DNA from: Mobula hypostoma
Lineage: Eukaryota
DNA length: 60,000 nt
NCBI RefSeq assembly: GCF_963921235.1
Contig: NC_086107.1
Span: forward strand, 94,924,001 to 94,984,000
Direction of reading: 5' to 3'
In this document: piece by piece, positions 6,773 through 60,000 of the stretch
Numbering within the stretch: position 1 is the first letter of the stretch
Layout of the letters: every line of letters starts with the position of its first letter
Translations under genes and position numbers: made by a program
Notes under the pieces: model-generated
Told to the model about the DNA's origin: nothing
The model's input: only the letters and a program-made list of their open reading frames with translations
Database searches by the model: none

Positions 6773-7756
6773 GGTCACAATTACCCATGCCAGGCAGGGA
6801 TCCCAGTCTAAAGCACGTTCTGATGAAACATAAAACACACGAAATTCTGCAGATGCTGGAAATCCAGAGCAGCACACTCAAAATGGTGGAGGAACTCAGC
6901 AGGTCAGGCAGCATCTATGGAATCCTGAGGATGGGTCTCGGCTCGAAACGTCGACTGTTTATTCATTTCCATAGATGCCGAGTCCTGTTAAAATATCTGG
7001 GAATGGCTCAGAATGGGCTAATCCTGCTTGAATAATCTATCTGGGATGGATGACAGTCACACAGCATGTACCGGCCCACTAAGTACGCGCCAACCATCAA
7101 GAATGCGTCTACACTGATCTCCCCACATTCCCTTGATCTGCCCTCCCCACCCATCCACAAATACTGGGGGCAAACTACAGAAACCAATTAACCCACCGAA
7201 GACCCTCAGGTCTTAGGAATGTAGCAGGAAACTGGAGCTCCCCGGGGAAACACACACACTCACAGGGAGAACGTCGGACTCCACATAGACAGCACTCAAG
7301 GTCGGGACTGTACTGGATCACAGGATTGGCGAGGAAGGGGTACCACTGTGTCCTGGTCTTGATCAGTAGCAGCATAGGTGAGGCAAGGCTATTCTGATGC
7401 TTATCCACAAGTCGTTATTATTGTAAGGATTTATTAACTATGCTGACAAAAAAAAGGAATCTCAGGATTGTGTATGGTGACATGTATGTAGTTTGATAAT
7501 AACTTTACTTTTGAACTTTGAAGTGCTTCAGGGTTGAATTAGCCATGAAGAAAAATTTAAGTCCTCACCCGGGTCAGGTCCTGGCTGGTTGCAGTTGGGT
7601 CAGGTTTTAAGTGTCGGCAAATAAGACTAGCATAGGTGCACATCGTGGTCAGAGTCTGCAAAGCTCTGCAAGTCCACTAGTGAGGTGGAAGCCCAACTGG
7701 AAGTCTGAGAGTCCAAGTCCACCAGAGGATGGAGGCCCAAGATGACGATCTGGCTT

Positions 7757-7930
7757 GGGGTTAGAGGGGTTAGAGGGGTGAGAGAGGGGTGGGAGAGGGG
7801 GAGAGGGGGAGAGGGGGAGAGGGGAGAGGGGGAGAGGGGGAGAGGGGGAGAGGGGGAGAGGGGGAGAGGGGGAGAGGGGGAGAGGGGGAGAGGGGGAGAG
7901 GGGGAGAGGGGGAGAGGGGGAGAGAGAGAG
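7757..7930 (+). repeat. Polypurine (GGGGAGA)n microsatellite
   Basis: Direct reading of the sequence. Confidence 0.97.
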
Positions 7931-10296
7931 AACGAGAACGCAGCGGGGATTGTTTTGTCATTGTTGTTTTGTTGCTTGCTGTGTTCTGTTTTGTTTTGCC
8001 GAGCATGGTGGGCATGTTACGTTGGTACCTGAACGTGTGGCGACACTCGCGGGCTGCCCACAGCACACCCTCAGGTGTGTTGGTTGTTAATGCAAACACC
8101 ACACTTCACAGTCTGTTTCGATGTACATGTAATAAACAAATTTGTATTAGACTGGACAAGTTGGGCCAAAATGTCTGCTTCCTATCGGTATTTGACTAAG
8201 TGACGTCTACCAGAGTACGATTGTATCCTATGAGGAAGTAATCCTCTTCCAGAGTAACAGGAGTCCACACTCCCAAGACACTCTGTCCAGTTAAATCAGA
8301 CCATACCCAATGCTCCCTTTACTCAATGCTCACAGAGATTACTAACCCACAATGTTCCCTCTTCCCACTCACAATTCATCCTCATCTTCAACACCAAATC
8401 TCAGTGTATTTTTCCCTCCTATTTGAATGATTATCCAATTATCCATACGACTCTTCTCCCCCTCCCGCATCCAACTACAGCCTATTTTTAGAAAAAAAAG
8501 GCACCCAGCGCCCGCCTCATTTCACGTGAGCACCCAGGATCAGCCGGAGTAGATTGGGAAGGGATGAGTGCAGTCACAGGCCAAGGCCCGGATACCATAG
8601 AAATCCTGGAGGTCTCATGCTGCTGTGGTTTCTGGTACAATCTGTATAGGAGGTTCCTCCTTCCATTGGCTGATAGACTGGGTGGTCACAGGATATGCAG
8701 GGAAATCCTGTCTGAATCACAGGCTCTTGGCTGAGAATTAAAATCCAGCATCAAAGAAGTTCTGGCAATTTGAATTCTATCTGCAGGGAATTATTCCATT
8801 AAAGCGTGGATTTAGCTGAAGCCCTCTGGTAGACACGAGGTTTGGGTTGCACTTACACCCCATTCAACTCTTTCTCAAACAGGTATTGACATAGAAATAA
8901 ATCTACGAGAAAACTCCAGCCCCTAATTCACACCTCACCCAGGATCTTTTGATTTTATTTTCCTATACTATTAAGTCATTTAGCAGGAATCAGAAATGTA
9001 ACCTTCAAACACACTAAGAATATTCACAAAGGAAAGATAGGTGTGGTACCAGGCTTAATCTTGGTTTACTCCAGATGTAGCCAATGAAGGACATTGTGAA
9101 CCGCAGTCACACCGTACAGAGTGTGGTAGCAAGTTCCCCATCCACTAGCTCTCTGGTTGGGTTAAACATTGGTTATGGACCCAAACCCTCCCCCCCCACC
9201 CTCCCCCAACCCATTTCAAGGGTGTGGTGTACATCTTCCGGCCCAGGGAGGAGATTGTGAGCAGAAGAGGCAGAGGAAAGAAGATCAGCTCCCCAGAAAT
9301 TCGTACACATTAGATAGGTGTTAAGAACAAATAAGGTTACAGGCCGTCCCAGGGTTACAATTGACTGATGTGGGACACGGGCCCGAACCGGGAGCACCGA
9401 GAGGACCTCCCTCACTCCGACCCAGCACCCCTTCTTTGTCACCCATCACAACCGTCTCTGGCACCCTCTCCTGTCTGCCCGATTGCGACGCCTGACGTGG
9501 GAACGGTTTCTGAGGTACGCACGGTTCTCAGGGACTGGGCCCAGCCGTAACCCGGGGGATTGCCTGTGTTGGCGAGGTGGACTGTTGGGTCCATCCGGTG
9601 AGGTTTGGAGAATCAGTAGTGAAACGCACCCAGCCTCTCCCATCAGTGGCATGCCCCCACCTGCACAACCCCCCACCTCAATATCTGCTCAACGGGAGCT
9701 CTGTAAAAAGGACATCACCATCGACCTATTTATCTACCTCACCTGCTGGAGTGGTGCTGTCATTACAACAGTTTCACAGGTCTCCCTCTCCACCTCCACC
9801 CCTCTCCAAAGTTTCTTGATGGAACGAGAGTCTATTAACTTGCCTCTTGCCACGCTGGAGGACATCAGAAGACCCAATTCAGGCAGAGTGCTCTCAAACG
9901 TGACCCGAATGTTCCTTAACAGGTGCTTCCCCCGACGACATGGAGAATGGGGAAAATTGTTCAATCGGCGATTGAATCAGTGGAAAGTAACGTTCAGCTT
10001 TGGATGATAATCACCCACAGAGCCCAAAGGATGGAAGTGCTCGCACTGGGGAAAATCCGAGGGTTTGCTGGTTCCTGATGATTCTCCGAGAGAAATACTT
10101 AGAAGGACACACCCCAGAAATCCCAAAGACTTTTTCAGGAACTCCCACCCCTTCCCTCACCCTCCCCCCACCCCCCAAATCTTGTCTCGTGATTCTTCAA
10201 ATACTCTCTGGTACCTTTTCTTCTCCACGTTACAGGACTTTTCCAGTGGATGTAAAAAAAAAACATTCAGGAAAAGTTCCAGTGGAATTCCAAGTT

Positions 10297-23598: not shown

Positions 23599-25395
23599 AT
23601 AAGACCATAAGAGGTCATTCAGCCCATCTAGTCTCCTCCGCCATTCCACCTTGGCTGATTTAGTTTCCTTCTAAACCCCATTCTCCTGCCTTCTCCATAA
23701 GACCATAAGACATGGGAGCAGAATTAGGCCATCTGGCCCATCAAGTCTGCTCCGCCATTCAATCATGGCTAATCCTTTTCTTTTCCCCCCTCCTCCAGTT
23801 CCCGGCCTTCTCCCTGTAACCTTTGATGTCATGTCTTATCAAGAACCTATCAATCTCTGCCTTAAATACACCCAACGACCTGGCCTCCACAGCTGCATGT
23901 GGCAACAAATTCCACAAGTTCACCACCCTTTGGCTAAATAAGTTTCTCTGCATCTCTGTTTTGAAAGGGCAACCCCCCTACCCTGGGGCTGGGCACTCTT
24001 GTCCTAGACTCACCAAGAATGGGAAACATCCTTTCCACATCTACTCTGTCTAGGCCTTTCAACATTCAAAAGAATTGAATGAGATGCCCCCTCATCCTTC
24101 CGAATTCCAGCAAGTACAGACCCAGAGCCATCAAACGTTCCTCGTATGATAACCCTTTCATTCCCGGAATCATCCTTGTGAACCTCCTCTGGACACTCTC
24201 CAACGTCAACACATCTTTTCTAAGATGAGGGGCCCAAAACTGTTCACAATACTTAAGGAGAGGCCTCAGCGTCACATCCTAGTTCTTGTATTCTACACCT
24301 CTGAAATGAATGCTAGCATTGCATTTGCCTTCCTCACCACCGGCTCAACCTGCAAGTTAACCTTTAGGGTATTCTGCACAAGAACTCCCATGTCCCTTTG
24401 CATCTCAAATTTTTAGATTTTCTTCCTGCTTAGAAAATAGTCCACATATTTATTTCTACTACCAAAGTGAATGACCATGCGTTTTCCAACATTGTATTTC
24501 ATTTACTACTTTGCTTGTCCATTCTCCTAATCCGTCCAAGTCCTTCTGCATCCTACCCATTTCCTCAATACCACCTGCCCCTCCACCAATCTTCAAATCA
24601 CCTGTACACCTGGCAACAAAGCCATCTATTCCATCATCTAAATCATTTATATACAGCATAAAAAAGAAGTGGTCCCAACACTGGCCCCTGCGGAACACCA
24701 CTAGTCACAGGCAGCCAACCAGAAAAGGATCCTTTTATTCCCACTCGCTGCCTCCTACCAATCAGCCAATGCTCTAACCATGTTAGTAACTTTCCTGTAA
24801 TACCATGGACTCTTAACTTGGTAAGCAGCCTCATGTGTGGCACCTTGTTAAAGGCCTTCTCCCCATAACTGTTGCCACCCTAATAATCAAGAATCTATTA
24901 ATGTCCACTTTAAATACATCTTCCAGAGCCATCTTTGGCAATGAATTCCATAGATCTACCATCCTCTGGCTACAGAAATTGCCCCTCACCTCTGTTCTAC
25001 AGTGACGTCCTTCTATTCCGAGTCTGCGTCCTCTGGTCCTAGACTCTCACACTATTGGAAACATCCTCTGCACGTCCACTCTATCTCAGCCTGTTTCAAT
25101 GAGATACCCCCTTATTCTTTTAAACTTTAGGCCCAGAGCCACCAAACATTCATGTTAACCCTTTCATCCCTGGGATCATTCTCGTGAAACTCCTCTGGAT
25201 CCTCCCCAATGCCAGCACATCCTTTCTTAGATAAGGGGCCCAATATTATTCACAATAGTCCAAGTGCAGTCACTACCTTATAAATCCTCAGCATTACATT
25301 TTTGCTTTTATATTCTAGTCCTATCAAAATTAATGCTAACATTGCATTTGCCTTCCTTACCACCGACTCAGCCTGCATGTTAACCTTTAAGGTGT
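23599..25395 (-). mobile_element. Nested CR1 3' fragments: younger copy (~23698-24856) inside an older one
   Basis: Two ataagaccataaga tails (23599, 23697); gccttctcc(cc)ataa on both flanks of the inner copy; RT peptides VTSGVPQGPVLGPLLF and LYINDLDDGID. Confidence 0.85.
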
Positions 25396-25436
25396 CCTAC
25401 ATTCCTGAAAGCAGATCAAACTGGGAGGATCCCTAC

Positions 25437-25600
25437 CGTCTTATCATCGTCCTCAAAGACTTCACGTGCCTCCTCGTAATTGCACACTTCTTCACAGCAT
25501 TCGCGTTCAATATTTCCTGGAGTTAAGAGCTCAAAATCCCAGCTGTTGTAGAGCAGCTTCCGGTTTAAGAAGGTAGTCGCTTCACGTTCATCCATAAACA
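25437..25600 (-). CDS. PRRG2: PRRG2-like coding exon 2: propeptide + Gla domain
   Basis: ttgcttttag|TG TTT ATG...; (V)FMDEREATTFLNRKLLYNSWDFELLTPGNIERECCEEVCNYEEAREVFEDDDKT matches the Gla signature (ERECxEExCxxEEAREVFE); donor ACG|gtaggg, phase 0. Confidence 0.96.
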
Positions 25601-26526
25601 CTAAAAGCAATTTTAAAAGGTTTTAATAATCACAACACACATCTGTCCCCACTGTCTCTCCAAAAAAACTCTCTGTTCCTCTGTATCCATGCTTGGGTCA
25701 CACATTCTCCCCTCAACTGTCTCTCTCTCAAAAAAAGAATATGCTCATGTGCGCCTCAAAATGTCTGACCCCGTCACTCCTTCAATAAAATTTCTGTCAC
25801 CTTCTCTCTCACTTTTCCTCTTCCCTTTCCAAAGATCTGTGTAAAGCCCTTAAAGTGAAAAGGTTATAAAGGATTCTACTGGATTCTCAGCAGGGGTTTA
25901 TCAGTGAGCATCCTGTACTTTGGTCTCGTTTAGCAGCAGAAATACTTCCCCTGCACACACTGGTGGAAGCAGCCCGGTCTGTAGTCCTTCTCCACCGAGC
26001 CCTCGCGGTGACTGCACCAAGCTTCAGGGCGTCCCTCAGCACACTCCTCCGCAGGCTAGAATATGCCAGCCAGCAGCTTTCCACCACGGACCTCTCGACG
26101 TGCTGGTAGACCGACAAGTTTCGAAAAAACTCTGATGATCTTCCATGCCTGTCTCGATGTGTGCCCTTGGGAACAGCCCAGGAGATCGGAGAGACCTCTG
26201 ATACACAGCTGCCTGGGCAGAGAGGGGCTGAGTCAGAGGGGGAACACCCCCCCCCCACCAAACAACAGGAGATTTAGTGAGTTGTGGGCATGCTATGTTG
26301 GCGCCAGAGATGTGGCGACACTTGCGGGCTGCCCCTCCAGCACTATTGGTCTTGATCTGCTTTGACCCAAACGACGCATCTCAGTGTCGGCTTCCATGCT
26401 TCAGCGTATGTGTGACAAATAAAACTAATCTTCAATCTTTTCCCAATTTGTGCCCCATTAGACCGCCTCTCCAATGATGTAGTCAAACCTCTCTGGGAGG
26501 CATCTTTTTCCAGAGAGTCTACCTAC

Positions 26527-27416: not shown

Positions 27417-28092
27417 GAGAGAAGATGGCGGCGCGACACAGCTCGCAGCGGCCACTGCGGTGGTGTTGTCTGTTATTTGTCAAGTAGGGGGCCGTGCACA
27501 ATCCTGATTTGATGGAGACGGATGTGAGAGCACGGAGGAACATCTGGTGAAACTTCTGAAATGCCTGCTTCGCTGCTGCTGCCACTGTGTGGTCCAGAAT
27601 CTCCGGAGGGGAAGGCCCCGAGTCCTCGGCTTTGCTTGTTGCTCGGCGGCTGGGGCAGGGTCGAAGCGCTCAGCAGAGGATGGTGCTCGGAGAGGCTGTG
27701 TCGGAGGGGCTGGTCAGAGGCTTGAAGTTTTCGGACGGACTCAGAGTCTGCTGCCATCGGGTGCTTCCAACGGTACTGCATCGGCAAGTTCGCAGCGCTT
27801 GGAGGTTCATGGCGGGGAGTGTTTCTCCCTTCTGCCGCCTGCGTGAGATGATGAGTCTATCGGGACCTTGAGACTTTTTTTTTACCGTGCCCATGGTCTG
27901 CTCTTTATCAAATTATGGTATTGCTTTGCACTGTGTAACTATATGTTATAATTATGTGGTTTTGTCAGTTTTAGTCTTGGTTTGTCCTGTGTTTTCTTGT
28001 GATATCATTCTGGAGGAATGTTGTATCATTTTTTAATTCATGCATATCTAAATGACAATCAATGAGGACTGAGTGTCCTCATAATCTAAATT
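27417..28092 (+). mobile_element. Non-coding LINE-derived element with CpG-rich head (AAGATGGCGGCG) and (taatc)-type tail; 3' piece also at ~21315-21400 minus
   Basis: Tail gaggactg(a/c)gtgtcctcataatctaaat shared with the reverse complement of 21315-21400; no RT coding capacity seen. Confidence 0.6.
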
Positions 28093-44589: not shown

Positions 44590-45280
44590 TATACTTTATT
44601 GTCGCCAAACAATTGATACTAGAAAGTACAATCGTCACAGCAATATTTGATTCTGCGCTTCCCGCTCCCTGGATTACAAATCGATAGTAAATATTCAAAA
44701 TTTAAATTATAAATCATAAATAGAAAATAGAAAACTGGAAAGTAAGGTAGTGCAAAAAAAAAACCGAGAGGCAGGTCCGGATATTTGGAGGGTACGGCCC
44801 AGATCCAGGTCAGGATCCATTCAGCAGTCTTATCACAATTGGAAAGAAGCTGTTCCCAGATCTGGCCGTACGAGTCTTCAAGCTCCTGAGCCATCTCCCG
44901 GAGGGAAGAGGGACGAAAAGTGTGTTGGCTGGGTGGGTCGTGTCTGGGAGCACTGCTCCGACAGCGTGTGGTGTAAAGTGAGTCCAAGGACGGAAGATTG
45001 GTTTGTGTGATGTGCTGCGCCATGTTCACGATCTTCTGCAGCTTCTTCCAGTCTTGGACAGGACAACTTCCATACCAGGTTGTGATGCACCCTAGAAGAA
45101 TGCTTTCTATGGTGCATCTATAAAAATTAGTGAGGGTTTTAAGGGACAGGCCAAATTTCTTTAGTTTTCTCAGGAAGTAAAGGTACTGGTGGGCCTTCTT
45201 GGCAGTGGAATCTGCTTGGTTGGACCGTCAGGTCATTTGCGATATTGACCCCAAGGATCTTAAAGCTTTTGACCTGTGTG
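44590..45280 (-). mobile_element. Rex1-like LINE 3' fragment
   Basis: AQHITQTNLPSLDSLYT.RC; tail caattgtttggcgacaataaagtat. Confidence 0.75.
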
Positions 45281-48213: not shown

Positions 48214-49462
48214 ACTCATAGTCATAGTCATACTTTACTGATCCCGGGGGAAATTGGTTTTTGTTACAGTTGCACCATAAATAATTAAATAGTAATAAAA
48301 CCATAAATAATTAAATAGTAATATGTAAACTATGCCAGGAAATAAGTCCAGGACCAGCCTATTGGCTCAGGATGTCTGACCCTCCAAGGGAGGAGTTGTA
48401 AAGTTTGATGGCCAAGGCAGGAAGGACTTCCTATGATGCTCTGTGTTGCATCTCGGTGGAATAAGTCTCTGGCTGAATGTACTCCTGTGCCCAACCAGTA
48501 CATTATGTAGTGGATGGGAGACATTGTCCAAGATGGCATGCAACTTGGACAGCATCCTCTTTTCAGACACCACCGTCAGAGAGTCCAGTTCCATCCCCAC
48601 AACATCACTGGCCTTATGAATGAGTTTGTTGATTCTGTTGGTGTCTGCTACCCTCAGCCTGCTGCCCCAGCACACAACAGCAAACATGATCGCACTGGCC
48701 ACCACAGACTTGTAGAATATCCTCAGCATCGTCCGGCAGATGTTAAAGGACCTCAGTCTCCTCAGGAAATAGAGATGGCTCTGACCCTTCTTGTAGACAG
48801 CCTCAGTGTTCTTTGATCAGTCTATTGTCAATTCGTATCCCTAGGTATTTGTAATCCTCCACCATGTCCACACTGACCTCCCGGATGGAAACAGGGGTCA
48901 GCGGTACCTTAGCTCTCCTCAGGTCTACCACCAGCTCCTTAGTCTTTTTCACATTAAGCTGCAGATAATTCTGCTCACACCATGTGACAAAGTTTCCTGC
49001 CGTAGCCCTGTACTCAGCCTCATCTCCCTTGCTGATGCATCCAACTATGGCAGAGTCATTAGAAAACTTCTGAAGATGACAAGACTCTGTGCAGTAGTTG
49101 AAGTTCAAGGTGTAAATGGTGAAGAGGAAGGGAGACAAGACCGTCCCCTGTGGAGTCCCAGTGCTGCTGATCACTCTGTCGGACACAGTGTTGCAAGCAC
49201 AAGTACTGTGGTCTGCCAGTCAGGTAATCAAGAATCCATGACACCAGGAAAGCATCCACTTGCATCGCTGTCAGCTTCTCCCCCAGCAGAGCAGGGTGGA
49301 TGGTGTTGAACGCACTGGAGAAGTCAAAAACATGACCCTCACAGTGCTCGCTGGCCTGTACTGGTGGGCGTAGACACGGTTCAGCAGGTAGATGATGGCA
49401 TCCTCAACTCCTAGTCGGGGCTGGTAGACAAACTGGAGGGGATCTAAGTGTGGCCTGACCAT
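48214..49462 (-). mobile_element. Rex1/Babar-clade LINE, 5'-truncated, frameshifted RT
   Basis: LDPLQF.YQP..GVEDAI; STGTPQGTVLSPFLFTIYT; LQKFSNDSAIVG; LQLNVKKTKELVVD; YKYLG; FYKSVVASAI.FAVVCWG; (ctatga)n tail at 48214-48232. Confidence 0.9.
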
Positions 49463-49859: not shown

Positions 49860-52503
49860 GACGTAGAGTCAGTATGGATAGAACTGAGAAATTCTAAGGG
49901 TAGAAAGACCCTAATGGGAGTTATCTACAGGCCCCCAAACGGTAGTCTGGATGTAGGGTGTATGTTGAATCAAGAGTTAAAATTGGCATGTCGCAGAGGT
50001 AATGCTACAGTTGTTATGGGGGATTTCAACATGCAGGTAGACTGGAGGAATCAGGTTGGTACTGGACCCCAAGAAAGGGAGTTTGTGGAGTCCCTCCGAG
50101 ATGGATTCAGCACAGCTTGTACTGGAGCCTACCAGAGAGAAGGCAATTCTAGATTTAGTGTTGTGCAATGAACCGGATTTGATCAGGGACCTCGAGGTAG
50201 AGGAGCCATTAGAAGGTAGTGACCATAATATGATAAGTTTTAATCTACAATTTGAGTGGGAGAAGGGAAACTCAGAAGTGTCAATACTACAGTTGAACAA
50301 AGGGAATTATGGTGCTATGAGGGAGGAGCTGGCCAAAGTTCAACAATACCCTAGCAGGGATGACAGTGGAACAGCAGTGGCAAGTGTTTCTGGGAATAAT
50401 GCGGAAGGTGCAGGATCAGTTCGTTCCAAAGAGGAAGAAAGATCCTAAGGGGAGTAAGGGGAGGTCGTGGCTGACAAGAGAAGTAATGGACAGTATAAAA
50501 ATAAAAGAGAAGAAGTATAACATAGCAAAGATGAGTGGGAAGCCGGAGGATTGGGAAACTTTTAAAGAGCAACAGAAGGTAACTGAAAAGGCAATACACC
50601 GAGAAAAAATGGGGTAAGAAGGTAAACTAGCCAAGAATATAAAGGAGGATAGTAAAAGCTTCTTTAGGTATGTGAAAAGGAAAAAAATTATTAAGACTAA
50701 AATTGGACCCTTGAAGACAGAAACGGGTGAATTTATTATGGGGAACAAGGAAATGGCAGACGAGTTGAACGGGTACTTTGAATCTGTCTTCACTAGGGAA
50801 GACACAAACAATCTCCCAGATATAATAATGGCCAAAGGACCTAGGGTAATGGATGAACTGAAGGAAATTTATATTAGGCAGGAAATGGTGTTGAATAGAC
50901 TGTTGGGTCTAAAGGCTGATAAGTCCCCGAAACCTGATGGTCTGCATCCCAGGGTACTTAAGGAGGTGGCTTTAGAAATCGTGGATGCATTGGTAATCAT
51001 TTTCCAATGCTCTATAGATTCAGGATCAGTTCCTGTGGATTGGAGGGTGGCTAATGTTGTCCCTCTTTTCAAGAAGGGAGGAAGAGAGAAAACAGGGAAT
51101 TATAGACTGGTTAGCCTGACGTCAGTGGTGGGAAAGATGGTGGAGTCAATTATAAAAGATGGAATTACGACACATCTGGATAGCAGAAACAGGATCGGTC
51201 CAAGTCAACATGGATCTACGAAGGGGAAATTGTGCTTGACTAATCTTCCAGAATTTTTTGGGGATGTAACTATGAAAATGGACAAGGGAGAGCCAGTGGA
51301 TGTAGTGTACCTGGACTTTCAGAAAGCCTTTGATAAAGTCCCACATAGGAGATTAGTGGGCAAAATTAGGGCACATGGTATTGGGGGCAGAGTACTGACA
51401 TGGATTGAAAATCGGCTGGCTGATAGAAAACAAAGAGTAGCGATTAATGGGTCCCTTTCGGAATGGGAGGCGGTGACCAGTGGGGTACCTCAGGGTTCAG
51501 TGCTGGGACCGCAGCTGTTTACAATATATATTAATGATTTAGATGAGGAAATTAAAAGTAACATTAGCAAATTTGCAGATGACACAAAGCTGGGTGGCAG
51601 TGTGAAATGTGAGGAGGATGTTATGAGAATGCAGGGTGACTTGGACAGGCTGGGTGAGTGGGCAGATGAATGGCAGATGCAGTTTAATGTGGATAAATGT
51701 GTGGTTATCCACTCTGGTGGTAAGAACAGGAAGGCAGATTATTATCTAAATGGAGTCAAGTTAGGAAAAGGGGAAGCACAACGAGATCTAGGTGTTCTTG
51801 TACGTCAGTCACTGAAAGCAAGCATGCAAATACAGCAGGCAGTGAAGAAAGCTAATGGCATGCTGGCCTTCATAACAAGGGGAATTGAGTATAAGAGCAA
51901 AGAGGTCCTTCTGCAGCTGTACAGGGCCCTGGTGAGACCACACCTGGAGTACTGTGTGCAGTTTTGGTCTCCAAATTTGAGGAACGACATTCTTGCTATT
52001 GAGGAAGTACAGCATAGGTTCACAAGGCTAATTCCCGGGATGGCAGGACTGTCATATGTCAAAAGATTGGAGCGACTGGGCTTGTATACTCAGGAATTTA
52101 CAAGGCTGAGAGGTGATCTTATTGAAACATATAAGATTATTAAGGGATTGGACACACTGGAGGCGGGAAGCATGTTCCAGCTGATGGGTGAGTCCAGAAC
52201 CAGAGGCCACAGTTTAAGAATAAGGGGTAGGCCATTTAGAACGGAGTCGAGGAAAAACTTTTTCACCCAGAGAGTGGTGGATATGTGGAATGCTCTGCCC
52301 CAGAAGGCTGTGGAGGCCAAGTCTCTGGATGCTTTCAAGAAAGAGATGGATAGAGCTCTTAAAGATAGTGGAATCAAAGGTTATGGGGATAAGGCGGGAA
52401 CTGGATACTGATTGTGGATGATCAGCCATGATCACAGTGAATGGCAGTGCTGGCTGGACGGGCCCAAATGGCCTACTCCTGCACCTATTGTCTATTGTCT
52501 ATT
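49860..52503 (+). mobile_element. Young 5'-truncated CR1 LINE: disrupted endonuclease region + uninterrupted 579-aa RT/C-terminal ORF (50672-52411)
   Basis: GVIYRPPN, GDFN and GSDHN endonuclease motifs; RT motifs LDFQKAFDKVPH, GVPQGSVLGP, FADDTK, RPHLEYC; 3' tail (ctattgt)n at 52484-52503; stop at 50615-50617 and frameshifts upstream. Confidence 0.97.
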
Positions 52504-53433: not shown

Positions 53434-53722
53434 GGAACAGAGGGACCTTGGCATATGAGGATAGGACACACACACATTGAATAGTGGGGAGTGTCGAGGA
53501 GCAGAGGGACCTCAGCGTTCAAGAATAGGACACACACTGTAAATGGTGGAAAATGTTGAGTGGTCAGAGGAACCTCAGTGTACAAGGGTAGGACACACCG
53601 TGAATGGTGGGGAATATTGAGAAAGAGAGGAACCTCGGTGTACGAGAGTAGGACACACACCGTGAATGGTGGGGTGGGTGTATTGAGGAACAGAGGGAAC
53701 TCGGTGTACAAGGGTCAGAGAC
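53434..53722 (+). repeat. Minisatellite, ~4.5 copies of a 60-66 bp unit resembling a CR1 RT segment
   Basis: Recurring cagagg(g/a)acctc.gtgtacaagggtaggacacac(ac)cgtgaatggtgggg; similar to the CR1 region encoding YTVNG...EQRDLG (compare 17600-17670). Confidence 0.7.
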
Positions 53723-53840: not shown

Positions 53841-53846
53841 TTTAAT
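53841..53846 (-). terminator. Candidate polyA signal (ATTAAA) of the repeat-protein gene
   Basis: cttacATTAAAcgattgtcc about 95 nt after the stop, followed by a GT/T-rich tract (ctgtgtcttcatattctt). Confidence 0.5.
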
Positions 53847-53938: not shown

Positions 53939-56900
53939 TCAGCGTGGGGCTCCCTGTGCCCGGAGCCCCCTCTGTTTCAGGAGGTCTCGGGCCCTCCCTA
54001 CCCCTGCAAAATAGAGGGTTGCCCAGAAGTGCCTGTCATCCTGGGGGACCCGCATCAGCTCGCTGTCTGTCACTTCCCTCCGTTGCCCCCGACCCATCTG
54101 CGGGTGGAGGATGCCAAAGAGAACATCCTCAGGGTCCGGGGGCAAACGGGGCACCTGTCTCTGTGGGTCCTCTGTGCCTGTCACCAGCACCTGTTCCCTT
54201 GTAGGTTCTTTGCTTGTGGTGATGGCCTCTGCATTGTAAACATCTCTGCCCATAGCCACACCTTCTTTGGTTAGAGACTCTTTGCCTGTAGCTGAAACCT
54301 GTTCATAAGATGGTTCTTTGCCTGTAGTGAGAATTTTTGCATAATAGATGTCTTCACTTGTAGGCAGTGATAGTTCATCAGGGGAATCTCTGCCTGTAGC
54401 TGTATCCTGTCCAGTTAGAAACTTTTCACCTGTAAATACACCCTGTTTGGTATCAGATTCTTTGCTTGCAGCTGAAGTCCATTCATAAGGCAATTCTTTG
54501 CTTGTAGCTACATCCTGTTCAATTATAAACTCTTTACCTGTAGCTTGAGCCTGTTCATAAGGGGATTCTTTGCCTGCAGATGCATCCAGATGATTTAGAA
54601 ACTCTTCACCTGTAACTGTACTTTGTTCAGAAGTGGAGTCTCCATGTGTAGCCACATCATGTTCATTCAGAGATTCTTCGCCTGTAGATGATGCCTGTTC
54701 ATAAGTCAAGTCTCCACTTTTAGCCACATCTTGTTCAGTTAGAGACTCTTTGCTTGTAACTGTAGTTTGTTCATAAGTGGATTCTCCACCTGTAGCTACA
54801 TCCTGTTCCATTAGAGTCTCTTCACCTGCAGCTGATGTCTGTTCATTAGTAGAGTCTCCACCTGTATCTGCATCCATGTTAATTAGAGACTCTTTGCCTG
54901 TAGTTGATGCCTGTTCATAAGTCAAGTCTTCACCTGTAGCTAGTGTCTGTTCATAAATGGAGTCTCCACCTGTAGCTACATCCTGTTCAGTTAAAGCCTC
55001 TTCGGCTGTAGCCGATGCCTGTTCATAAATGGAGTCTCCACCTGTAGCTACATCCTGTTCAGTTAAAGCCTCTTCGGCTGTAGCCGATGCCTGTTCATAA
55101 ATGGAGTCTCCACCTGTAGCTTTATCCTGTTCAGTTAGAGATCCTTCACCTGAAACTGTAGTTTGTTCATAAGTGGATTCTCCTTCTGCAGCTAGTGTCT
55201 GTTCATAAATTGAGTCTTCACCTGTAGCTACATCCTGTTCAGTTAAAGCCTCTTCGGCTGTAGCCGATGCCTGTTCATAAATGGAGTCTCCACCTGTAGC
55301 TTTATCCTGTTCAGTTAGAGATCCTTCACCTGAAACTGTAGTTTGTTCATAAGTGGATTCTCCTTCTGCAGCTAGTGTCTGTTCATAAATTGAGTCTTCA
55401 CCTGTAGCTACATCCTGTTCAGTTAGAGACTCTTCAGCTGTAGCTGATGCCTGATCATAAGTCAAATCTCCACCTGTAGCTAGTGTCTGTTCATAAATGG
55501 AGTCTCCACCTATAGCTACATCCTGTTCAGTTAGAGACTCTTCGGCTGCAGCTGATACCTGTTCATAAGTGGAGTCTCCACCTGTAGCTTTATCCTGCTC
55601 AGTTAGAGATTCTTCATCTGTAACTGTAGTTTGTTCATCAGTGGATTCTCCACCTGCAGCTAGTGTCTGTTCATAAATGGAGTCTCCACCTGTAGCTACA
55701 TCCTGTTCAGTTAGAGACTCTTCACCTGTAGCTGATGCCTGATCATAAGTCAAATCTCCACCCCTAGCTTTATCCTGTTCAGTTAGAGATTCTTCACCTA
55801 TAACTGCAGTTTGTCCATAAGTGGATTCTCCATCTGTAGCTAGTGTCTGTTCATAAGTGGAGTCTCCACCTGTAGCTATATCATGTCCAATTAGAAGCTC
55901 TTCACCTGTAGCTGCTGGCTGTTCATAAGTGGATTCTCCACCTGTAGCTGCATCCTGTTCAGTTACAGACTCTTTGACTGTTGTTGCTGCCTGTTCATAA
56001 GTGGAGTCTCCACCTGTAGCTACATCCTGTTCAGTTAGAGTCTCTTCTACAGTTGCTGATAGCTGTTCGTAAGTGTATTCTCCACCTGTAGCTACATCCT
56101 GTTCTGTTAGAGACTCTTCACTTGTAGCGAGTGTCTGTTCATAAGTGTATTCTCCACCTGTGTCCACAATCTGTTCAGTTAGAGATGCTTCACCTGTATC
56201 AGAAGCCAGCTCATTAAGAGATTCTTCACCTGTTTTAATATCCTGTTCAGTTAGAGACTCTTTGCCTGTACCTAAAACCTGTCCATATGAGGAATTTTCA
56301 CCTATAGTCAGGATCTCTGCATAATCAGTTTCCTTGCCTGTAAGTGTTGATTGTTCATAAAGGGAATTTCCAGCTGGAGCTGGAGGCTGTTCAGTTGGAG
56401 ATTCCCCACCTGAGGTCAGGTCCTTTTCATCTGAGGATTCTTTGCTTGTAGTCAGAATCTCTGCATAAAAAGCACCTTTGTCTGTGGTCAGGGCCTGTTC
56501 ACTTGTGGAAATTTCACCAGTAGCTAGAGCCTGTTTATATGGGAATTCTTCACCTGCATAACTGAAATCTTCATCTGCAGTCAGGGCCTGTTCAGATGGA
56601 GGTTCTCCACCAGAATTCTGGATCTCTGCGTAAGATGTGTCTTCACCTATACTCAGAGTCTGTTCACCTGTGGGTTCTTCACCTGAATATATTGTCTGTT
56701 CTTCTGTAAATTCTTCACTTGAAGGTATGGCCTGTTCATCTACAAATTCATCGCCTGAAGATATGGCCTGTCCACCTTTAAGTTCTTCACTTGGAAATAT
56801 GGCCTGTTTGCCTATAGATCCTTCACCTGAAAATATGGTCTGTTCACCTGTGGGTTCTTCACCTGAAGATATGGTCTGTTCAACTGTTGATCCTGCACCT

Positions 56901-59900
56901 GAAGATATGGTTTGTTCAACTGTTGATCCTTCATCTGAAGATATGGTTTGTTCATGTATGTTGATAGATTCATCACCTGAAGATCCATCATGTTCATCTG
57001 TGTATTCTTCACCTGAAGATATGGCCTGTTCACCTGTAAGTTCTTCACCTGAAGATACATCATGTTCACCTATAGGTCCTTCACCTGAAGATGTGTTCTG
57101 TTCACCTGTAGGTTCTTCACCTGAAGATATGGTCTGTTCAACTGTTGATCCTTCACCTGAAGATATAGTCTGTTCAACTGTGGGTTCCTCAACTGAAGAT
57201 ATGGTCTGTTCAACTGTTGATCCTTCATCTGAAGATATGGTCTGTTCTCCTGTAGATTCTCCACCTGAAGATAAGGTCTGTTCACCTGTAGGTTCTTCAC
57301 CTGAAGATATGGTCTGTTCACCTGTGGGTTCTTCACCTGAAGATATGGTCTGTTCACCTGTGGGTTCTTCACCCAAAGATATGGTCTGTTCACCTGTGGG
57401 TTCTTCACCCAAAGGTATGGTCTGTTCTCCTGTGGGTTCTTCACCTGAAGATATGTTCTGTTCAACTGTTGATCCTTCATCTGAAGATATGGTTTGTTCA
57501 TGTATGTTGGTAGATTCATCACTTGAGGATCTATCATGTTCATCTGTGTATTCTTCACCCGAAGATATGGCCTGTTCACCTGTAGGTTCTTCACCTGAAG
57601 ATACATCATGTTCGGCTATAGGTCCTTCTCCTGAAGATATGGTCTGTTCACCTGTGGGTTCTTCACCTGAAGATATGGTCTGTTCAACTGTCGATCCTTC
57701 ATCTGAAGATATGGTCTGTTCACCTGTAGGTTCTTCACCTGAAGATATGGTCTGTTCACCTGTAGGTTCTTCACCCGAAGATATGGTCTGTTCACCTGTA
57801 GGTTCTTCACCTGAAGATAGGGTATGTTTACCTGTAGGTTCTTCACCTGAAGATATGGTCTGTTCACCTGTAGGTTCTTCACCTGAAGATATGGTCTGTT
57901 CAACTGTCAATCCTTCAGCTGAAGATATGGTCTGTTCACCTCTAGGTTCTTCACCTGAAGATATGGTCTGTTCAACTGTCGATCCTTCACCTGAAGTTAT
58001 GGTTTGTTCAACTGTCGATCCTTCATCTGACGATATGGTCTGTTCTCCTGTAGATTCTACACCTGAAGATATGGTCTGTTCACCTGTAGGTTCTTCACCT
58101 GTAGATATGATCTGTTCAATTGTTGATCCTTCAGCTGAAGATATGTTCTGTTCAACTGTCGATCCTTCACCTGAAGATATGGTCTGTTCATGTTTGCTGG
58201 TAGATTCATCACCTGAAGATCCATCATGTTCATCTGTGTATTCTTCACCTAAAGATATGGCCTGTTCACCTGTGGATACTTCACCTGAAGATATGGTCTG
58301 TTCACCTGTGGGTTCTTCACCCAAAGATATGGTCTGTTCACCTGTGGGTTCTTCACCTGAAGATATGGTCTGTTCAACTGTCGATCCTTCACCTGAAGAT
58401 ATGGTCTGTTCATCTGTGGGCTCTTCATCTGAAGATATGGTCTGTTCAACTGTCAATCCCTCACCTGAAGATATGGTCTGTTCAACTGTCGATCCTTCAC
58501 CTGAAGATATGGTCTGTTCAACTGTCGATCCTACACCTGAAGATATAGTCTGTTCAACTGTCGATCCTTCACCTGAAGATATGTGTTGTTCTCCTGTAGA
58601 TTCTCCACCTGAAGATACGGTCTGTTCACCTGTAGGTTCTTCACCTGAAGATATGGTTTGTTCAACTGTCGATCCTTCAGCTGAAGATAGGGTATGTTCA
58701 CCTGTAGGTTCTTCACCTGAAGATATGGTCTGTTCACCTGTGGGTTCTTCACCTGAAGATATGGTCTGTTCAACTGTCGATCCTACACCTGAAGATATGG
58801 TCTGTTCAACTGTCGATCCTTCACCTGAAGATATAGTTTGTTCCACCGTCGATCCTTCACCTGAAGATATGGTCTGTTCTCCTGTAGATTCTCCACCTGA
58901 AGATATGGTCTGTTCACCTGTAGATTCTTCACCTGAAGATATGGTCTGTTCACCTGTAGGTTCTTCACCTGAAGATATGGTCTGTTCAACTGTCGATCCT
59001 TCAGCTGAAGATAGGGTCTGTTCACCTGTAGGTTCTTCACCTGAAGATATGGTTTGTTCAACTGTCGATCCTTCATCTGACGATATGGTCTGTTCTCCTG
59101 TAGATTCTACACCTGAAGATATGGTCTGTTCACCTGTAGGTTCTTCAACTGAAGATATGATCTGTTCAACTGTTGATCCTTCAGCTGAAGATATGTTCTG
59201 TTCAACTGTCGATCCTTCACCTGAAGATATTGTCTGTTCATGTTTGCTGGTAGATTCATCACCTGAAGATATGGTCTGTTCACCTGTGGGTTCTTCACCC
59301 AAAGATATGGTCTGTTCACCTGTGGGTTCTTCACCTGAAGATATGGTCTGTTCAATTGTCGATCCTTCACCTGAAGATATAGTTTGTTCAACTGTTGATC
59401 CTTCACTTGAATATGTGGTCTGTTGAACTGTCAATCCCTCACCTGAAGATATGGTCTGTTCAACTGTCGATCCTTCATCAGAAGATATGGTCTGTTCACC
59501 TGTAGGTTCTTCACCTGAAGATATGGTCTGTTCAACTGTTGATCCTTCACCTGAAGATATGGTCTGTTCAACTGTTGATTCTACACCTGAAGATATAGTC
59601 TGTTCAACTGTCGATCCTTCACCTGAAGATATGTGTTGTTCTCCTGTAGATTCTCCACCTGAAGATACGGTCTGTTCACCTGTAGGTTCTTCATCTGAAG
59701 ATACAGTCTGTTCACCTGAAGATATGGTTTGTTCAACTGTCGATCCTTCAGCTGAAGATAGGGTATGTTCACCTGTAGGTTCTTCACCTGAATGTATGGT
59801 CTGTTCACCTGTAGGTTCTTCATCTGAAGATAGGGTCTGTTCACCTGTAGGTTCTTCATCTGAAGATATGGTCTGTTCACCTGTAGGTTCTTCACCTGAA

Positions 59901-59998
59901 GATATGGTCTGTTCACCTGTAGGTTCTTCACCTGAAGATATGCTCTGTTCAACTGTCGATCCTTCACCTGAAGATATGGTTTGTTCAACTGTCGATCC
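53939..59998 (-). CDS. 3' part of an unidentified giant acidic 12-aa tandem-repeat protein (N-terminus outside window)
   Basis: The 1831-aa track ORF starts at a TTG; the same frame appears stop-free to the window edge (~2,020 codons). The frame stays open through strongly diverged repeats and a unique ~75-aa C-terminus while the other frames close. TGA at 53939-53941. Confidence 0.85.
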   Translation of the reverse strand, partial: GSTVEQTISSGEGSTVEQSISSGEEPTGEQTISSGEEPTGEQTISSDEEPTGEQTLSSDEEPTGEQTIHSGEEPTGEHTLSSAEGSTVEQTISSGEQTVSSDEEPTGEQTVSSGGESTGEQHISSGEGSTVEQTISSGVESTVEQTISSGEGSTVEQTISSGEEPTGEQTISSDEGSTVEQTISSGEGLTVQQTTYSSEGSTVEQTISSGEGSTIEQTISSGEEPTGEQTISLGEEPTGEQTISSGDESTSKHEQTISSGEGSTVEQNISSAEGSTVEQIISSVEEPTGEQTISSGVESTGEQTISSDEGSTVEQTISSGEEPTGEQTLSSAEGSTVEQTISSGEEPTGEQTISSGEESTGEQTISSGGESTGEQTISSGEGSTVEQTISSGEGSTVEQTISSGVGSTVEQTISSGEEPTGEQTISSGEEPTGEHTLSSAEGSTVEQTISSGEEPTGEQTVSSGGESTGEQHISSGEGSTVEQTISSGVGSTVEQTISSGEGSTVEQTISSGEGLTVEQTISSDEEPTDEQTISSGEGSTVEQTISSGEEPTGEQTISLGEEPTGEQTISSGEVSTGEQAISLGEEYTDEHDGSSGDESTSKHEQTISSGEGSTVEQNISSAEGSTIEQIISTGEEPTGEQTISSGVESTGEQTISSDEGSTVEQTITSGEGSTVEQTISSGEEPRGEQTISSAEGLTVEQTISSGEEPTGEQTISSGEEPTGKHTLSSGEEPTGEQTISSGEEPTGEQTISSGEEPTGEQTISSDEGSTVEQTISSGEEPTGEQTISSGEGPIAEHDVSSGEEPTGEQAISSGEEYTDEHDRSSSDESTNIHEQTISSDEGSTVEQNISSGEEPTGEQTIPLGEEPTGEQTISLGEEPTGEQTISSGEEPTGEQTISSGEEPTGEQTLSSGGESTGEQTISSDEGSTVEQTISSVEEPTVEQTISSGEGSTVEQTISSGEEPTGEQNTSSGEGPIGEHDVSSGEELTGEQAISSGEEYTDEHDGSSGDESINIHEQTISSDEGSTVEQTISSGAGSTVEQTISSGEEPTGEQTIFSGEGSIGKQAIFPSEELKGGQAISSGDEFVDEQAIPSSEEFTEEQTIYSGEEPTGEQTLSIGEDTSYAEIQNSGGEPPSEQALTADEDFSYAGEEFPYKQALATGEISTSEQALTTDKGAFYAEILTTSKESSDEKDLTSGGESPTEQPPAPAGNSLYEQSTLTGKETDYAEILTIGENSSYGQVLGTGKESLTEQDIKTGEESLNELASDTGEASLTEQIVDTGGEYTYEQTLATSEESLTEQDVATGGEYTYEQLSATVEETLTEQDVATGGDSTYEQAATTVKESVTEQDAATGGESTYEQPAATGEELLIGHDIATGGDSTYEQTLATDGESTYGQTAVIGEESLTEQDKARGGDLTYDQASATGEESLTEQDVATGGDSIYEQTLAAGGESTDEQTTVTDEESLTEQDKATGGDSTYEQVSAAAEESLTEQDVAIGGDSIYEQTLATGGDLTYDQASATAEESLTEQDVATGEDSIYEQTLAAEGESTYEQTTVSGEGSLTEQDKATGGDSIYEQASATAEEALTEQDVATGEDSIYEQTLAAEGESTYEQTTVSGEGSLTEQDKATGGDSIYEQASATAEEALTEQDVATGGDSIYEQASATAEEALTEQDVATGGDSIYEQTLATGEDLTYEQASTTGKESLINMDADTGGDSTNEQTSAAGEETLMEQDVATGGESTYEQTTVTSKESLTEQDVAKSGDLTYEQASSTGEESLNEHDVATHGDSTSEQSTVTGEEFLNHLDASAGKESPYEQAQATGKEFIIEQDVATSKELPYEWTSAASKESDTKQGVFTGEKFLTGQDTATGRDSPDELSLPTSEDIYYAKILTTGKEPSYEQVSATGKESLTKEGVAMGRDVYNAEAITTSKEPTREQVLVTGTEDPQRQVPRLPPDPEDVLFGILHPQMGRGQRREVTDSELMRVPQDDRHFWATLYFAGVGRARDLLKQRGLRAQGAPR

Positions 59999-60000
59999 TT
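54200..60000. repeat. Coding 36-bp minisatellite (homogeneous ~56.7-60 kb; diverged, partly 72-bp periodic ~54.2-56.7 kb)
   Basis: Plus-strand unit cacctgaagatatggtctgttcacctgtaggttctt and variants repeated without spacers. Confidence 0.97.

Follow-up and report, generated by a model that had tools for sequence, protein, structure and literature searches.

A very probable gene for a giant acidic tandem-repeat protein upstream of PRRG2 in Mobula hypostoma

What, if anything, is encoded by a very long repetitive reading frame situated upstream of PRRG2 in the genome of Mobula hypostoma (3.48 Gb), and would its product stay in the cell or be secreted? The frame runs off the high end of the 60,000-nucleotide stretch analyzed here (RefSeq assembly GCF_963921235.1, contig NC_086107.1, positions 94,924,001 to 94,984,000; hereafter the window), in which it occupies 53939..59998 on the minus strand with 2019 codons and a TGA stop codon (53939..53941). 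This agrees with the uninterrupted frame of about 2,020 codons described in a first-pass annotation of the window, where the continuation of the frame past base 60000 went unnoticed. By adding the next 60 kb (positions outside the window are given as window-equivalent coordinates, i.e. the contig position minus 94924000), we found that the frame extends 4.4 kb past the window, to an upstream stop at 64385-64387, and comprises 3481 codons in all. These are contained within one exon of at least 10.4 kb, reaching from 64315 down to the stop at 53939, of which the window holds the last 2019 codons and the stop (53939..60000). As set out below, the locus is very probably a protein-coding gene.

The exon is divided into zones, all on the minus strand. 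A non-repeat head of approximately 540 codons, rich in G, P, S, E and R and with 62% GC (62705-64315), holds the first in-frame ATG (64205-64207), and is followed by region 2 (60305-62704), approximately 800 codons of 11-residue repeats of the TTGEESLEQAL type; both are located beyond the window. Region 3 (56615..60000 in the window, and on to 60304) consists of approximately 100 units of EQTISSGEEPTG / EQTISSGEGSTV with a 36-bp period, and region 4 (54305..56614) of approximately 64 twelve-residue units in 24-residue pairs (ATGGDSTYEQ.. / ..EESLTEQDV; 72-bp period), with Tyr in an acidic context. The C-terminal non-repeat tail (53942..54304) has 121 residues, a net charge of 0, many Arg residues and no Pfam family. 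An ATTAAA that is a candidate polyadenylation signal was noticed by eye 93-98 nucleotides past the stop (53841..53846). Tandem Repeats Finder delimited two arrays, one with a 36-bp period (56658-59723, 84.5 copies, 82% matches) and one with a 72-bp period (54503-56270, 24.5 copies, 71% matches), and the earlier estimate of roughly 160 twelve-residue units is matched by length, at about 94 + 64 units in the window.

From 90 anchors, 78 in-register units of region 3 were obtained, with the consensus EQTISSGEESTG. S-S-G-E is kept at its four positions in 75, 70, 60 and 67 of the 78 units, respectively, and the next position is E in 47 or G in 29 of them. The SSGE(E/G) motif of the first-pass annotation is thereby borne out, but not its placement in N-proximal units, as the window part is not the N-terminus. 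Region 2 holds most copies of an aromatic motif, i.e. YPLDRP, five residues and DFPFDHFL, together with two GVSAP..CEVISVTT modules; the motif occurs seven times, if one copy found by eye and a partial one in the head (FQFDHFL) are counted. A T-G-E-E-x-x-E-Q core is common to all repeat zones, and the exon therefore looks like the result of successive amplifications of one unit. Compared with itself at a shift, the array is 82-85% identical in DNA and hence not a very recent expansion.

Frame 0 has zero stops in every section of the exon, while the other five frames have 2-189 stops per section, so that its openness exceeds chance. Over the 538 non-repeat codons, which contain no stop, each of the other five frames has 12-16, and 200 shuffles averaged 16.5 with never fewer than 6; across the diverged zones 2 and 4, stops likewise number 9-89 in every other frame. 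When the 280 substitutions of the 78 units were re-dealt, 17.9 +/- 3.5 stops were expected; none was observed, and none of 2000 trials gave zero. On the opposite strand, an S/P/V/C/D-rich antisense frame of 930 codons (56634-59426, plus strand) is confined to the 36-bp array and ends with it, and was consequently regarded as a by-product of the repeat and not as a second gene. In contrast, two other minisatellites of the same genome are open in several frames and on both strands, for only 200-650 codons.

Matches were also found in four runs (X1-X4, from one study and one organism), consisting of contigs of 86-241 million letters and labelled 'RNA?'; of the words sampled from stretch L007:1-4400, they contain fractions of 0.95, 0.57, 0.41 and 0.30. 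Within the stretch L014 (62701-72700), record 1 of X1 (2843 nucleotides, depth 11.4) matches positions 1-1617 without difference and then carries 124 extra letters, while record 13 of X2 (208 nucleotides) matches positions 1531-1617 without difference and then carries 121 extra letters. These 121-124 letters map to nothing listed within L014. Position 1617 is the A of an AG (64316-64317) that closes a long polypyrimidine tract (...tcttctctttctcattccttccccacctacccacccacAG), after which the exon, starting at 64315, begins AGC TCG GAC. We read this junction as a canonical splice acceptor, preceded by an upstream exon with AG as its last letters; a phase-0 intron would fit. As the contigs of both runs break at the acceptor with further letters, a short upstream exon of at least 121-124 nucleotides exists, and the locus appears to be transcribed. 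Extension beyond base 60000, from which the first-pass annotation had expected upstream exons, thus gave the 3481-codon frame and the acceptor, but not the location of the exon. At the other end, no exon module continuing the gene after the TGA was found by Pfam among all 315 open reading frames (ORFs) of at least 65 residues in window 1-53900, which yielded only the PRRG2 Gla exon, fragments of long interspersed nuclear elements (LINEs) and Tc1-type elements, and one spurious APS_kinase; the giant exon is therefore taken as terminal.

Upstream of the acceptor, only short high-depth contigs with 95-99% likeness were found, on a stretch with mobile-element fragments, and the absence of unique contig cover there was given no evidential weight. 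A 151-nucleotide exact contig at L014:5141-5291 was rejected as the missing exon, as it ends in AC instead of AG on the minus strand, and a fifth run from another organism (X5), with only 0.06 of the words, was dismissed as evidence of an orthologue. A reverse-transcriptase-like ORF was seen by eye at 67230-67610, upstream of the giant exon.

Where translation starts bears directly on secretion. The 111 nucleotides from the acceptor to the first ATG contain no other ATG and are open in all three frames, so an open frame there is uninformative. Both this ATG and the next are in frame, the former having an A at -3 and the latter a G at -3 and a G at +4; neither precedes a hydrophobic stretch, and no signal peptide comes after the first. 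The first-pass annotation had proposed a matrix protein on the premise that an upstream exon supplies the signal peptide. Such an exon is indeed present, judging from the X1 and X2 contigs, but no convincing signal-peptide exon was found in three scans of 56 kb upstream (minus strand, 64.4-120 kb), in which an ATG, 12-70 codons and a phase-0 donor ([A/G/T]AG followed by GT or GC) were looked for and 2, 7 and 57 candidates inspected. The only candidates with a hydrophobic core were the start of a claudin-like gene, pieces in a retroelement-bearing stretch (L010:3539-4925), and one with a poor GC donor. Because of its composition, the protein had initially been given a slight prior for secretion, which was lowered by the outcome of these scans; secretion is unproven, and the balance now tips against it.

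The window part of the frame is composed of E (17.4%), S (15.0%), T (14.2%), G (12.2%) and Q (7.4%) to a large extent, with 32 K, 18 R, 21 H and no Cys, just as the scarcity of basic residues and Cys had been described at first sight. From the first ATG, the predicted product has 3422 residues, 358 kDa, an isoelectric point of 4.05, a net charge of -531 and 2 Cys. The SG-acidic and SxE motifs to which attention had been drawn are abundant in it, with 84 SG, 60 SG[D/E] and 115 SxE, in addition to 363 S/T-x-x-D/E and approximately 40 Tyr in an acidic context; in the array, S+T amounts to 34%, Pro to 3.6% and Glu to about 20%. Its highest 19-residue hydropathy mean is 1.0, and hence there is no membrane-like segment. 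AlphaFold2 without an alignment gave the first 500 residues a mean predicted local distance difference test score of 44, with 395 of the 500 below 50. A Pfam scan of the frame identified no domain; matches to DUF3046, DM9, Tape_meas_lam_C and CTD7 (0-1 stretches, mostly under the cut-off) were discarded as artefacts of repeat and composition. The product is accordingly predicted by these models to be an intrinsically disordered polyanion.

The failed search for a signal-peptide exon, together with the clean in-frame first ATG, shifted our assessment toward a non-secreted stand-alone protein. We tentatively favor an untranslated upstream exon and translation from the giant exon's first ATG, which would give a 3422-residue orphan polyanionic disordered protein kept inside the cell. 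In this scheme, the short upstream exon (at least 121-124 nucleotides) would be joined by splicing to a single terminal exon, at least 10.4 kb long, in which one 11-12-residue unit with the T-G-E-E-x-x-E-Q core may have multiplied and diverged again and again. Its zones are, in order, the non-repeat head, 11-mers with aromatic docking motifs, approximately 100 SSGE 12-mers, approximately 64 YEQ/TEQD 12-mers and the short neutral tail. The sheer charge and length of the product could make it an entropic spacer, a binder or buffer of cations, or a scaffold; its 363 S/T-x-x-D/E sites would be accessible to acidophilic kinases, and the seven YPLDRP..DFPFDHFL motifs are likely partner-binding (docking) sites. 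Several points weigh against this. The exon scan was crude, covering one exon only, 56 kb and a simple hydropathy rule, and the upstream exon is known by length alone, so that it may hold both start codon and signal peptide, in agreement with an intron compatible with phase 0. The composition resembles that of glycosaminoglycan-attachment or mucin-like secreted regions, given its S+T content, its SG[D/E] and SxE sites and its Tyr beside acidic residues. The RNA status of X1-X4 is a guess, none being listed as RNA, and they represent a single study with contigs that lack strand, level or tissue labels. As for the frame itself, many substitutions are inherited between units, and when each distinct variant was for this reason counted once, 48 of the 108 that are possible had occurred, the 6 that would make a stop not being among them (P = 0.026, rising to 0.053 if the anchor codons are left out). 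Constraint on the residues is weak when units are compared, with ratios of non-synonymous to synonymous differences (pN/pS) of 0.75 (78 units), 0.57 (7), 1.04 (4) and 0.68 (5), and the protein searches yielded no orthologue in which conservation could show.

Alternatively, the locus may be transcribed and untranslated, i.e. a coding-looking minisatellite in a decaying gene or a long non-coding RNA, in which the amplification of a stop-free unit would explain the frame. A tandem array of such a unit is open by construction, as the antisense frame over the array illustrates, pN/pS is 0.57-1.04, and the protein is absent from public sets. This explanation is nevertheless highly improbable, since the frame is also open over the 538 non-repeat codons and the diverged zones 2 and 4, since the array substitutions should have produced 17.9 stops where none is seen, and since the two other minisatellites are open only over much shorter lengths and in several frames. 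The exon could instead be an alternative giant last exon of a larger multi-exon gene with N-terminal domains further upstream, the contigs merely breaking 121-124 nucleotides above the junction. In its favor, the contigs of two runs end at 121 and 124 nucleotides, perhaps because assembly broke off at another junction, and no stop closes the frame at the acceptor; yet the 191 minus-strand ORFs of at least 60 residues from 64.4-120 kb gave only mobile elements and a claudin-like gene with its own start (exons of fewer than 60 codons would escape such a scan), and we consider this very unlikely. An unlikely reading, though one with more in its favor, is that of a secreted polyanionic matrix protein, for which the upstream exon gives the start and signal peptide and the SG-acidic sites are xylosylated, the chain O-glycosylated, or the SxE sites phosphorylated by a Golgi kinase, in a gel, cartilage, mineralized tissue or egg envelope. 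The acidic, Cys-poor composition with its SG[D/E], SxE and Tyr sites is as expected for it, as are the short 5' exon, the intron compatible with phase 0 and the frame open from the acceptor on. Against it stand the uninformative openness of that segment, the first ATG of the exon being in frame with no earlier one, the lack of a convincing signal-peptide exon within 56 kb upstream, the absence of link, lectin, CCP, vWD, SEA or SPARC-type modules in 120 kb, and the recurring aromatic motifs, which are as in cytosolic scaffolds. In its most specific form, which we consider decidedly unlikely, this would be a ray-lineage orphan gene for a secreted 358-kDa polyanion whose SSGE units bear glycosaminoglycan chains by the dozen or phosphates by the hundred. 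The product would be the core protein so far missing from an elasmobranch specialty, e.g. the electrosensory canal gel, tessellated cartilage mineralization or the egg envelope, and the gene would have originated next to PRRG2 from a 12-residue unit, separately from the lecticans and SCPPs.

That no orthologue had been recognized in the first-pass annotation is matched by three protein searches. Up to E 0.001, no match came from two word-index searches, one with residues 140-1400 of a 3333-residue translation among proteins of 1833-5833 residues, the other with the final 460 residues among proteins of 1110-3534 residues. An HMMER search of 1.84 billion representatives with the exon's first 1200 residues found 17 proteins (best E 7.5e-9), all on the repeat part of the query; the five that were inspected are unrelated repeat proteins, and the matches were not accepted as relatives. 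The nearest Atlas neighbors, an FSCB cluster with a score of 0.76 (146 of 256 features) and another with 0.75, are leads only. As a control, the PRRG2 Gla exon (25419-25622) found 45 proteins, 44 of which are PRRG2 or PRRG2-like, with the best match at 98% (devil ray) and other rays at 77-86%. The protein library thus covers ray annotations, seemingly including gene predictions from this very sequence, and the giant frame is absent from it. GADD34/PPP1R15A, HRC, RPGR ORF15 and the lecticans were considered as its identity and dropped, their defining C-terminal or flanking domains being missing in the Pfam scans. Topical literature searches, covering titles and the beginnings of abstracts, returned nothing on such a protein, and four peptide words from the repeats did not occur in the literature searched. 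Within its own genome, all seven matches of the N-terminal 540 residues lie in the frame, as do 16 of the 34 matches of a 241-residue array piece, which are those of the strongest type. The other 18 (24-45% identity) were not accepted as copies, the two places opened being unrelated minisatellites. By sequence matching, then, the locus is single-copy in its own genome.

Regarding the neighborhood, the position next to PRRG2 named in the first-pass annotation was confirmed by the control search, as the giant gene lies upstream of PRRG2, the Gla-domain exon of which (minus strand; Pfam Gla, E 1.6e-16) is found 28 kb downstream of the giant exon on the same strand. On the other side, 41 kb upstream and again on the same strand, is an intronless claudin-like ORF of 239 codons with its own start (L011:5055-5771, i.e. 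105055-105771, minus strand; PMP22_Claudin, E 2.5e-14). Between these two, the giant frame aside, only mobile-element fragments were recognized in the Pfam scans of ORFs, which in all 191 upstream minus-strand ORFs of at least 60 residues gave only mobile-element families and the claudin-like gene, and which in 120 kb contained no link, lectin, CCP, vWD, SEA or SPARC-type module. The APS_kinase match at 27560-27868 (plus strand) is spurious, with 22 bits against a cut-off of 21.1 and no P-loop in the translation.

Repeats and mobile elements are frequent in the region. Just past the candidate 3' end is a 60-63-bp minisatellite (53470-53712, approximately 4 copies, 75-81% matches), and at 7630-8200 there is a G/A-rich simple repeat that reads GEGERGRG or PLPLSPSP, a non-coding repeat open in several frames and on both strands. 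A LINE reverse-transcriptase ORF of 597 uninterrupted codons is situated at 50618-52411 (plus strand; RVT_1, E 3e-31), with further LINE pieces at 44622-45227, 48370-49219 and 24646-24879 (minus strand). Helix-turn-helix fragments of Tc1/mariner-type transposases occur at 783-1425 and at L012:8511-8957, both on the minus strand (HTH_SB, E 7e-15; HTH_Tnp_Tc3_2, E 5e-12), and fragments of a retroelement of the long terminal repeat type (Integrase_H2C2, rve, RVT_1) in several frames at L010:3539-4925 (minus strand), i.e. 93539-94925. ORFs at 89409-90971 (plus strand) resemble, by eye, a reverse transcriptase and a Cys-rich GIY-YIG-like end, as in Penelope-like elements, and a similar Cys-rich end was seen by eye in L029:4149-6086, behind a 13-residue proline-rich repeat.

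If real, the protein would be among the largest of the animal; that public protein sets lack it is probably due to repeat masking, which conceals the gene from predictors. The locus illustrates how an entire 10-kb coding exon may be built from one 12-residue unit, and its exact coordinates and splice junction make it a concrete candidate in searches for unidentified polyanionic components in ray tissues. If the protein is secreted, its 60 SG[D/E] and 115 SxE sites would bear glycosaminoglycans or phosphate.

Among known systems, the chondroitin-sulfate region of aggrecan and other lecticans shares with it a very large single exon, short Ser-Gly-acidic tandem units, hydrophobic spacers and a scarcity of Cys and basic residues, and the central Ser-Gly in an acidic context (84 SG, 60 SG[D/E]) is a likeness at the level of the motif. 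Unlike in lecticans, there are no Ig/link (Xlink) modules before it (191/191 upstream ORFs) and, as the first-pass annotation had remarked for lectin and CCP, no EGF, C-type lectin or CCP modules within it or after it (315/315 downstream ORFs); the giant exon has its own stop (TGA, with ATTAAA 93 nucleotides on), no signal peptide was found for the candidate product, and there is no sequence similarity. SIBLING/SCPP proteins such as DSPP and DMP1 are similarly disordered and very acidic, with many SxE sites (115 here), a large last exon and an intron phase with which ours is compatible. The SCPP cluster sits beside a SPARC-like gene, whereas this gene adjoins PRRG2 and a claudin-like gene with no SPARC-type gene in 120 kb; it also differs in being ten times longer, in having a unit rich in E/T/G/Q instead of D/S, and in that no signal-peptide exon was found by the scans. 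Beside the Pro/Thr/Ser-rich repeats of mucins, the array has an S+T content of 34% but only 3.6% Pro, with about 20% Glu; unlike in mucins, no vWD/Cys-knot or SEA/transmembrane module was seen (no Pfam family, 2 Cys, hydropathy maximum 1.0).

A similar layout is offered by the intracellular GCNA/ACRC, RPGR ORF15, RP1L1 and CMYA5, all with rapidly evolving acidic disordered tandem repeats in one giant exon. Proteins of this type have a folded domain elsewhere (protease, RCC1, doublecortin and SPRY, respectively), in contrast to the giant frame, in which no folded domain was seen and which has no sequence similarity to them. GCNA/ACRC is described as an intracellular, rapidly evolving protein with acidic disordered repeats, poorly conserved in sequence while its composition is kept (PMC5098910). 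FSCB, the fibrous sheath CABYR-binding protein of chordates, is likewise acidic and of low complexity and is the nearest Atlas cluster, at a score below the level at which it would be more than a lead, but no such match occurred among the 17 weak HMMER matches (5 inspected), and FSCB has 816 residues compared to about 3400. AHNAK has the same arrangement of short non-coding 5' exon(s) followed by all coding sequence in one giant repeat exon, though with units of 128 residues that are basic or neutral, and without homology. Lacking the testable defining features of lecticans, mucins and SCPPs, the gene would on its sequence be a new orphan of a broad kind, that of the giant-exon acidic tandem-repeat disordered proteins.

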